Sequence record: PZ019085.1
Strand: one strand, 5' to 3'
Source: a phage
DNA: 64,000 nt
The position numbers were made by a program, and so were the translations under genes. The notes under the pieces were generated by a model that saw only the letters and a program-made list of their open reading frames with translations, was not told where the DNA came from and made no database searches. Shown here piece by piece: positions 38,557 to 39,572 of the stretch. Each line of letters starts with the position of its first letter. The first letter of the stretch is position 1.

Positions 38557-38564
38557 TATAAATA
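38557..38564 (+). promoter_or_regulatory. Late promoter (TATAAATA) after gene 31, upstream of rIII
   Basis: Exact TATAAATA immediately after gene 31 stop. Confidence 0.5.
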
Positions 38565-38680: not shown

Positions 38681-38929
38681 ATGACTAAACAATTACAACA
38701 CGCTCTTGAACTGCAACGCCATGCATGGAATAATGGCCATGACAATTACGGCGCATCTATTGATGTTGAAGCCGAAGCTCTTGAAATCTTACAGTATTTC
38801 AAACATCTGAATCCAGCACAAGCCGATCTTCGCGATATCCTGGTCCAGAAAGATGAATTGAAATATGCTAAGCCTCTGGCTTCTGCAGCACGTAAAGCAG
38901 TTCGTCATTTTGTTATTACGCTGAAGTAA
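38681..38929 (+). CDS. rIII: Lysis-inhibition accessory protein rIII
   Basis: 82 aa (T4 82); synteny after gene 31. Confidence 0.8.
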   Translation: MTKQLQHALELQRHAWNNGHDNYGASIDVEAEALEILQYFKHLNPAQADLRDILVQKDELKYAKPLASAARKAVRHFVITLK

Positions 38930-39301
38930 GTTAAATCGAGGAGCCGTCGAATTGTCTGATTATCGATTTGCGAATCGATATGTTTTAGAAGTACCGCCCC
39001 GACAATTTTACGGTGTACCTCTTGAATGTGGTTCTTATAGCGGTAAGTGCATGCTACCCCGAGGTGATGGCCAATCGGGAGTACGCCTCAAGGCCTATAT
39101 ATCCATCAGTATATATATCTTATCCTCGAGAAATCGGACCCGGAACCTTTAAGCTAACGGTGTGCAACAGATAAGAGCTATAAGGTATGATGACTGGTTT
39201 ATGGTTATCCTGTCGTTAAATATCCAAAACCTATGTTCCCCTTGAGGGCTTGAGCAGGCAATGTCAATAAGTCCTGCATTTTCATTTAAAGAGAATTTAT
39301 A

Positions 39302-39481
39302 ATGGCAAAACAAGCTAAAGCAAAGAAAGCAGTCGAAAAGAAAGTTGATGGTACCTCTAAACGCGCTGGATACAAGCGTGGGTCGAACTCTCGTATTAAT
39401 CAAACAGTTGAGAAGATCATGCGCAGAGCACGTGCAGTTCTTCGAGATGATGCTTCTCGTTTTGGAAAGGTTGTTGCATAA
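39302..39481 (+). CDS. Small basic protein (59 aa), 30.9 position
   Basis: Below ORF-track cutoff; Lys/Arg-rich; followed directly by UUCG hairpin terminator. Confidence 0.45.
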   Translation: MAKQAKAKKAVEKKVDGTSKRAGYKRGSNSRINQTVEKIMRRARAVLRDDASRFGKVVA

Positions 39482-39486
39482 TTTTA

Positions 39487-39508
39487 GGGAGACTTCGGTC
39501 TCCCTTTT
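39487..39508 (+). terminator. Intrinsic terminator (GGGAGAC-UUCG-GUCUCCC + T4)
   Basis: Same 18-nt hairpin as 24362; follows small ORF 39302..39481. Confidence 0.75.
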
Positions 39509-39540
39509 GTGCGTTTAGGGCAGAAAAAGTTTAAAAAGAT

Positions 39541-39572
39541 GTTTACTCTCCTGTAGGATGTGTTACTATAGA
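39541..39572 (+). promoter_or_regulatory. T4-type early promoter
   Basis: GTTTAC 39541-39546; TACTATAGA 39564-39572. Confidence 0.65.

Follow-up and report, generated by a model that had tools for sequence, protein, structure and literature searches.

The noncoding region between rIII and gene 30.9 (positions 38930-39301 of the window, by which we mean the whole 64,000-nucleotide stretch of phage DNA analysed here, from sequence record PZ019085.1) encodes RNA and not protein, in the form of a chain of independently folding modules. One of these, which we refer to as the core, is a 153-nt domain with a four-way junction (39033..39185, + strand). Judged by comparative sequence analysis, the core is a real structured RNA family with a well-supported predicted fold, hitherto undescribed as far as we found, and the literature that we searched contained no description of the element. 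A preliminary description of the region, made from its letters alone, had proposed a structured RNA or regulatory leader, a decayed gene or a remnant of horizontally acquired DNA. The first of these proposals is upheld by strong covariation in related phages: in alignments of relatives, a check that the preliminary description had itself recommended, pairings are preserved by compensatory substitutions. The chain of separate modules, a loop-loop pseudoknot within the core and the wide distribution of the element had not been part of that description.

The phage is T4-like (Tequatrovirus-type), and the genes at this locus are arranged on the + strand in the order cd, 31.1, 31, rIII, the noncoding region, 30.9 and 30.8. 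The upstream gene of the unit, rIII (38681..38929, + strand), is an ORF encoding a lysis-inhibition accessory protein (phrog_1457 at 8e-42). The downstream gene, 30.9 (39302..39481, + strand; phrog_1427), encodes a very basic protein of 59 amino acids. The gp30.9 family comprises 65 protein clusters, all of them hypothetical and confined to T4-like phages of Enterobacterales. The predicted structure of gp30.9 consists of one helix and a disordered basic tail with an uninformative pLDDT of 67, and a sequence search of the PDB returned no match for it. The annotated start of gp30.9 in T4 is an upstream ATG located inside a hairpin (hairpin E, described below; locus L003, T4, 1372-1590). The counterpart of this ATG in the window (39261-39302) is out of frame and opens a 13-codon frame whose TAA overlaps the start of 30.9 (TAATG). 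Because the upstream ATG is out of frame in the window, the conserved MAKQAK at 39302 is likely to be the true start of 30.9; the T4 annotation of gp30.9 is probably too long. The GC content of the noncoding region is 42.2% compared with 37.8% for the whole window, placing it in the 93rd percentile of equal-sized windows, and the core reaches 46.4% (97th percentile). The GC enrichment noticed earlier is thus real, but it is modest and not marked, as had been stated.

A late-promoter motif (TATAAATA) is located at 38557, upstream of rIII. Between rIII and 30.9 we found no sigma-70, late, middle or early promoter motif in the window, and no intrinsic terminator or PeSL (a type of promoter-terminator cassette, discussed below) was found inside 38930-39301. 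Downstream of 30.9, at approximately 39486-39509, lies a terminator hairpin (GGGAGACUUCGGUCUCCC) and its U run, where Rfam gave partial matches to terminator-like hairpins, and an early-promoter motif (GTTTAC…TACTAT) is located downstream of this terminator at 39541. Taken together, these motifs suggest a transcription unit that runs from rIII to 30.9 on the + strand. As there is no promoter motif between the two genes, the leader of 30.9 is intercistronic. Judging from its citation in PMC9409239, a 2003 paper has the expression of rIII and 30.9 as its subject.

The core contains seven helices, identified using RNAalifold and direct pair counting and assessed with shuffles and a covariance model, all of them on the + strand. 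P1 closes the domain (39037-41 with 39177-81, extendable to 39033-41 with 39177-85). P2 (39042-44 with 39093-95) and P3 (39053-62 with 39075-86) form one long arm, which has a conserved asymmetric internal loop with AAGUGCAU (39045-52) opposite CUCAAG (39087-92). P4 is a hairpin (39096-102 with 39111-17), and P5 (39118-24 with 39170-76) is stacked on P1 and splits into two hairpins, P5a and P5b. P5a (39126-29 with 39134-37) is a tetraloop hairpin with a GAAA loop (39130-33), and its cap is GAAA, GUAA or GGAA in most copies (usually GNRA) and UAAA or UAAU in a few. P5b (39138-42 with 39158-63) has an almost invariant loop (39143-57) and is followed by the junction strand GCAACA (39164-69). P1, P2, P4 and P5 join with zero linker nucleotides. 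Several sequence features picked out in the preliminary description find their place in this fold: the TATATAT run at 39098-39120 corresponds to helix P4, the AGGCCT palindrome at 39091 spans the P2/P4 junction, and the CTCGAG palindrome at 39125 belongs to hairpin P5a.

The core alignment was built from 23 copies and later extended to 26 distinct sequences, including divergent ones from Escherichia phage EcS1, Yersinia phage fHe-Yen9-01 and Erwinia phage Cronus. Across the 26 distinct sequences, 99.2% of pair cells contain standard pairs. Compensatory (both-sided) changes were observed in 27 of the 47 core pairs, with at least one compensatory pair in every helix. None of 500 shuffles came up to the values of the real alignment, and when the partners were displaced by 1-3 columns, 25-44% of cells remained paired. 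The covariance model score of the core was 172.6 bits. Variable columns amount to 55 of 88 among paired positions versus 18 of 84 among unpaired positions; the unpaired nucleotides are nearly invariant, and a stretch of approximately 25 nt (GCUAACGGUGUGCAACAGAU and its neighbours) is almost invariant across genera. Single-sequence folding energy is unremarkable on both strands (z = -0.22 for the core, and -0.82), and the case for structure therefore rests on comparison between phages and not on thermodynamics.

Six covarying Watson-Crick pairs connect the tips of P3 and P4 and form a loop-loop (kissing) pseudoknot on the + strand between UGAUGG in the P3 apical loop (39065-39070) and CCAUCA in the P4 apical loop (39103-39108). 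The outer loop pair (34:95) is C-G in 15 sequences and U-A in nine, pair 36:94 is G-C in 21, A-U in two and U-A in two, and pair 57:90 is G-C in 23 and A-U in one, with zero one-sided changes among the P3/P4 loop pairs. The loops read UGAUGG/CCAUCA in the window, CGAUGG/CCAUCG in Klebsiella phages, CUAUGG/CCAUAG in Serratia phages, and CAAUGA/UCAUUG in Cronus, EcS1 and fHe-Yen9-01. The covariance model behind the alignment did not contain the loop-loop pairs, and the alignment was thus made without any fit to them. Covariation is blind to the distinction between intramolecular and intermolecular pairing, and hence the P3 and P4 loops could also mediate multimerisation. An alternative pseudoknot between GAGGCG and CGCCUC was considered by eye and rejected, as the nested P3 pairs covary and EcS1 does not have the complementarity.

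The preliminary description had seen no convincing ORF in the region. ORFs do exist there, namely a TTG-initiated frame of 66 amino acids (38952-39152), a GTG-initiated frame of 53 amino acids (39013-39174) and minus-strand frames, yet the judgement holds: the 66-aa and 53-aa ORFs have no Pfam or PHROGs match, and each of 26 core homologues has at least one stop codon in each of the six frames. The variable sites of the core are distributed across codon phases as 29/22/22, i.e., without three-base periodicity, and the core alignment contains 1-nt and 2-nt indels. With no frame conserved, these patterns contradict the suggestion of a decayed gene. G-U pairs in the core occur on the + strand only, which establishes the sense of the RNA as that of rIII and 30.9. 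GenBank labels over the core include one to three "hypothetical proteins", a "glycogen branching enzyme", an rIII extension and a "terminator"; the "terminator" annotated in OL960580 coincides with helix P3. These annotations of the core, as protein genes, rIII extension or terminator, are very likely wrong.

A BLASTN search of the region against 50,697 phage records identified some part of it in 996 records, with one copy per genome (997 places in 996 records). The core is present in approximately 400 sequenced T4-like phages of Enterobacterales. T4 itself keeps both flanks without the middle (window ~39027-39185), and its empty site reads …CTTGAATGT-GA-ATGATGAC…. Phages of Klebsiella, Serratia, Enterobacter, Erwinia, Edwardsiella and Yersinia have the core at high identity and differ in the flanks. 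Core identity to the window is 82-96% across these six genera (the Yersinia alignment covers just 42% of the core), and in the same phages gene 31 (69-79% identical) and rIII (75-81%) fall below the core. Among 40 gp30.9 loci from IMG/VR, the core is present at 20 and absent at 20, and gp30.9 is equally conserved with or without it. At all 41 distinct core-bearing loci with enough flanking sequence, the core is preceded by rIII and followed by 30.9, both on its own strand. The idea of a horizontally acquired remnant is apt in one respect: the core is an insertion/deletion module that is missing from T4 and roughly half of relatives, but it is under purifying selection and is thus not a remnant.

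The 5' arm (38938..39021, + strand) is a long bent hairpin predicted by RNAalifold on 13 sequences. It consists of four helices (38938-41 with 39018-21, 38943-47 with 39010-14, 38949-56 with 39001-08, and 38961-68 with 38973-80), the last of which has a UGCG loop and accounts for the dyad at 38961-38980 that had been noted earlier, which is real and forms the apical helix of the arm. Four of the 25 pairs of the 5' arm have compensatory changes in these 13 sequences, and the arm is common to T4 too.

An H-type pseudoknot module was identified by covariation at 39188..39234 (+ strand). Stem 1 pairs 39188-94 with 39212-18, plus GG (39196-97) with CC (39209-10), and stem 2 pairs the loop at 39203-06 with 39228-31, with an A-rich linker at 39219-27. 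Across the module, 82% of cells are paired compared with 32-49% in slid controls. Double changes occur in seven of 14 pairs, four of which are in stem 2, and stem 2 has at least five different sequences among phages. The covariation score was 0.358 versus 0.142 for shuffled data in a fixed-register test, and self loop/tail pairs scored 13.9 compared with 9.7 for non-self pairs. For stem 2, a single-sequence longest-helix test was not significant, whereas the fixed-register test of covariation was. We regard the support for the pseudoknot as moderate because a few alignment rows are out of register. The module is present in T4 and in core-less relatives. It is located 5' of the core in Klebsiella and Serratia phages and 3' of the core in Escherichia and Enterobacter phages.

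Two candidate hairpins on the + strand were recognised by eye in the alignments. Hairpin D (39238..39253) consists of CCC (39239-41), a UUGA loop and GGG (39246-48), followed by CUUG. Its variants, also compiled by eye, include CCCUUAGGGG, CCCUAUGGGG, CCUUCGAGG and CCUCUUAGAGG, and it precedes the core in Enterobacter phage KMB17 and Escherichia phage EcS1. Hairpin E (39254..39277) pairs GCAGG (39254-58) with CCUGC (39273-77) and, by eye, is much longer or different elsewhere (GGGAGC...GCUCCC in Klebsiella phages, and GGCUCUA...UAGAGCU in EcS1 and locus L046). The ribosome-binding site of 30.9 comes after hairpins D and E.

Other modules were observed in related loci. An alternative conserved hairpin module, B' (…CACGCGUCAGAAAAAGGUUAUCUGUCUAAG…, predicted), occupies the slot of the core, between the 5' arm and the pseudoknot, in L025, L038, L074, L077 and L078, while in L046 it is located at the tip of hairpin E. 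A small conserved module with the sequence GGUGAUU(C/U)GCUACC(A/U)AAGUGC…CUAGAAAAU (T4: GGAGAUUCACUGCCUUAGUGUGAGCUAAAAU) follows rIII in many phages and is missing from the window; it was seen in L004 (~1455-1490), L078, L003 (T4; ~1172-1200) and L081. Its stem appears to covary (CGC/GCG versus CAC/GUG), and it holds the words GCUACC and AAGUGC, both of which are also found in the 5' part of the core. A "middle promoter" considered before the core in Klebsiella phages is likelier to be a small hairpin module, which is also present in T4 and L078. The promoter reading is disfavoured because a transcription start there would delete P1.

A core-less rIII-30.9 noncoding region, nearly identical to that of T4, was observed in phi92 (locus L050, FR775895.2, 2480-2804), which is not a T4-like phage. 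This copy is located in a tRNA gene array, between tRNA-Gly and tRNA-Gln, and the flanking genes are truncated. After the copy comes ATGG, with which 30.9 begins, in fusion with approximately the last 30 codons of rIII, and then a second TTTATTGGAGAT, whose TGGAGAT is the 5' acceptor strand of tRNA-Gln. The arrangement of these sequences looks like that of a circularly permuted cassette integrated by microhomology. In a distant T4-like phage (L085, IMGVR_UViG_2974770551_000001, ~1380-1500), a gp30.9 homologue is located directly after gene 31, with its own early-promoter motif, no rIII, and a leader that is short and unstructured. It follows that gp30.9 can occur without the structured region.

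We compared the region with known RNAs. An Rfam 15 search at E <= 10, which had been recommended in the preliminary description, gave no match to a known RNA family in 38930-39301 or in the equivalent part of seven homologous loci. The tRNA-gene check, recommended alongside it and run here with ARAGORN, detected zero tRNA or tmRNA genes in the whole window and in nine related loci. The best score of the core model in the T4 tRNA/rnaC/rnaD region, with filters off, was 5.6 bits (E ~2), and kinship to rnaC/rnaD was rejected. Among 185,579 genomes of bacteria and archaea, none contained an exact 20-mer of the invariant stretch, and E. coli genomes gave no match to the core at E <= 10; the core is thus not a copy of a host RNA. 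Mimicry of rRNA was also considered and rejected, as word matches to the E. coli rrnB operon were close to the number expected by chance and the 16S matches were not colinear.

The stems of the core are free to vary as long as pairing holds, and the junctions and loops are nearly invariant. This suggests that the core is a specific recognition device, i.e., a putative binding site for a protein or a small ligand. We consider it most likely, with a probability of roughly 40%, that the core acts in cis on the rIII-30.9 transcript, given that it would be part of the same transcript, lies upstream of 30.9 on the same strand and, in the copy of the window, has no promoter or terminator motif of its own. 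The core would control how the rIII-30.9 mRNA is translated or what becomes of it, as an additional, optional input to a leader whose near-universal parts would be the pseudoknot and the hairpins. The occurrence of the pseudoknot and hairpins in core-less relatives is consistent with this arrangement. Against cis action, we found no expression platform and nothing that visibly competes with P1, and the order of the modules varies among genera, which is easier to reconcile with autonomous modules than with a switch coupled to the ribosome-binding site. The core is also dispensable, being absent from T4 and from half of the IMG/VR gp30.9 loci. The equal conservation of gp30.9 regardless of the core and the short, unstructured leader of L085 point in the same direction, and the core-less copy in phi92 hints that at least the other modules can matter apart from 30.9.

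A possible but doubtful alternative is that the core, with or without its neighbours, is excised from the rIII-30.9 transcript as a stable noncoding RNA that acts in trans, as a decoy, sponge or cofactor on a host or phage factor, and brings an accessory, host-dependent benefit. Autonomous modules in shuffled order would be expected of such an RNA, as would loops that are extremely conserved between genera. The patchy distribution of the core among close relatives, with B' in the same slot (L025, L038, L074 and L077), resembles that of accessory loci. The transfer of the core-less region into the phi92 tRNA array, with truncation of the flanking genes, also speaks for a role in trans, but the core itself is not part of that copy. 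Moreover, the core is confined to one locus within one transcription unit and lacks both a promoter and a terminator of its own, we recognised no signals for processing in it, it is not tRNA-like by ARAGORN, and it has no similarity or extended complementarity to E. coli genomes. It is rather unlikely, in our assessment, that the core represents a new T-even-specific functional RNA class (an aptamer that detects or captures a small molecule, a new self-cleaving ribozyme, or an RNA forming dimers or rings by way of its complementary P3 and P4 loops) that goes beyond ordinary leader structure.

We think it unlikely that the region is generic mRNA architecture without a specific partner, its hairpins serving just as nuclease protection for the transcript or as a spacer between the cistrons. 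The row of hairpins that separates the two genes could serve this purpose, hairpins D and E are free to change in both sequence and length, and the single-sequence folding energy of the core is ordinary. However, a stabiliser needs no four-way junction, covarying loop-loop pseudoknot or almost invariant 25-nt stretch, and conservation in the core is higher at unpaired than at paired positions.

Small ribozymes are typically around 150 nt in length, with a multi-helix junction locked by a distal loop-loop contact and invariant nucleotides in the junction and loops. The core matches this type in its size, locked junction and invariant nucleotides, and both its intercistronic site in a phage operon and its autonomy from the neighbouring modules would suit a new class of self-cleaving ribozyme, with its cut in the bicistronic transcript falling between rIII and 30.9. 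We nevertheless consider this improbable, as the ribozyme families of Rfam gave no match at E <= 10, we recognised none of the known catalytic core motifs, and the sequence singles out no cleavage site. Hardly credible at all is a protein-coding or decayed gene (the 66-aa TTG or 53-aa GTG frame) or a DNA signal (an origin, recombination site or cruciform): some GenBank records do place genes here, but the interrupted frames, indels, missing codon periodicity and missing family matches described above argue against coding, the + strand G-U pairs would become A-C mismatches on the opposite strand, and hairpin caps that are mostly GNRA and an orientation that agrees with transcription argue against both.

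T-even phages are among the most studied genomes, and here a complex fold was unannotated or mislabelled as protein genes in approximately 400 of their relatives. For RNA biology, the core is a compact new fold with rich covariation. For phage biology, it is a testable optional module, with genomes that have it and genomes that do not, some of which grow on E. coli K-12, and it offers a way to approach the little-understood genes rIII and 30.9. Core-bearing candidates for such work are AlbertHofmann (MZ501047) and Paracelsus (MZ501096), which grow on E. coli K-12, and JS98, for which E. coli is recorded as the host. The neighbouring modules illustrate that noncoding RNA parts, besides genes, are shuffled between phage genera.

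Among known RNAs, the aptamers of the purine, lysine and cobalamin riboswitches have a junction that holds arms next to each other, and Watson-Crick pairs connect the distal loops of these arms. The core shares with them a multi-helix junction, joined distal loops, covarying stems and near-invariant junctions, which is a resemblance and not membership, as well as a position upstream of a gene on the same strand. As is characteristic of riboswitch leaders, the core is always located upstream of 30.9 on the + strand, in an intercistronic leader. Unlike riboswitches, it has no Rfam riboswitch match and no recognisable expression platform: we found no terminator, no convincing pairing that competes with P1 by inspection, and no clear anti-Shine-Dalgarno sequence. 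Its position with respect to the ribosome-binding site is variable, other modules intervene between the two, and 30.9 provides no clue to a ligand. The pRNA of phi29 is a phage-encoded structured RNA with two complementary, covarying loops, and the core likewise has covarying complementarity between two loops, in four loop-pair variants. It differs from pRNA in having no Rfam match, a different junction type, a location away from the packaging genes and the status of an optional element; to our knowledge, T4-type packaging needs no RNA.

The rnaC and rnaD RNAs of T4 (species 1 and 2) are, like the core, small structured RNAs of T4-type phages (approximately 120-140 nt) whose function is not known, but they are located in the tRNA cluster and T4 does not have the core at all. 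ROOL and GOLLD, large and ornate RNAs associated with phages, for which multimeric RNA-only assemblies have been reported, resemble the core as complex, covariation-supported folds carried by phages, and the core-less region is found beside tRNA genes in phi92. The core differs in being much smaller, in having no Rfam match and in its location within an mRNA between two small genes. The pseudoknot module at 39188-39234 resembles the pseudoknot of the T4 gene 32 mRNA and other T-even translational operators, in that it is an H-type pseudoknot with an A-rich stretch after it and belongs to the leader of 30.9, whose small, basic product is reminiscent of nucleic-acid-binding proteins. We saw no sequence relation between the module and the gene 32 operator, and the module sits on either side of the core; that gp30.9 might bind the pseudoknot module, as the analogy would have it, is pure conjecture. 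Finally, PeSLs are promoter-terminator cassettes of T4-type phages, which are short, conserved and noncoding and act as sites of module shuffling (PMC2839356, PMC4122927). The core differs from a PeSL in containing neither promoter nor terminator and in having a complex fold as opposed to a single stem-loop, whereas the stretch after 30.9 (39486-39570), with a terminator and then an early promoter, has the PeSL arrangement described for T4-type phages.
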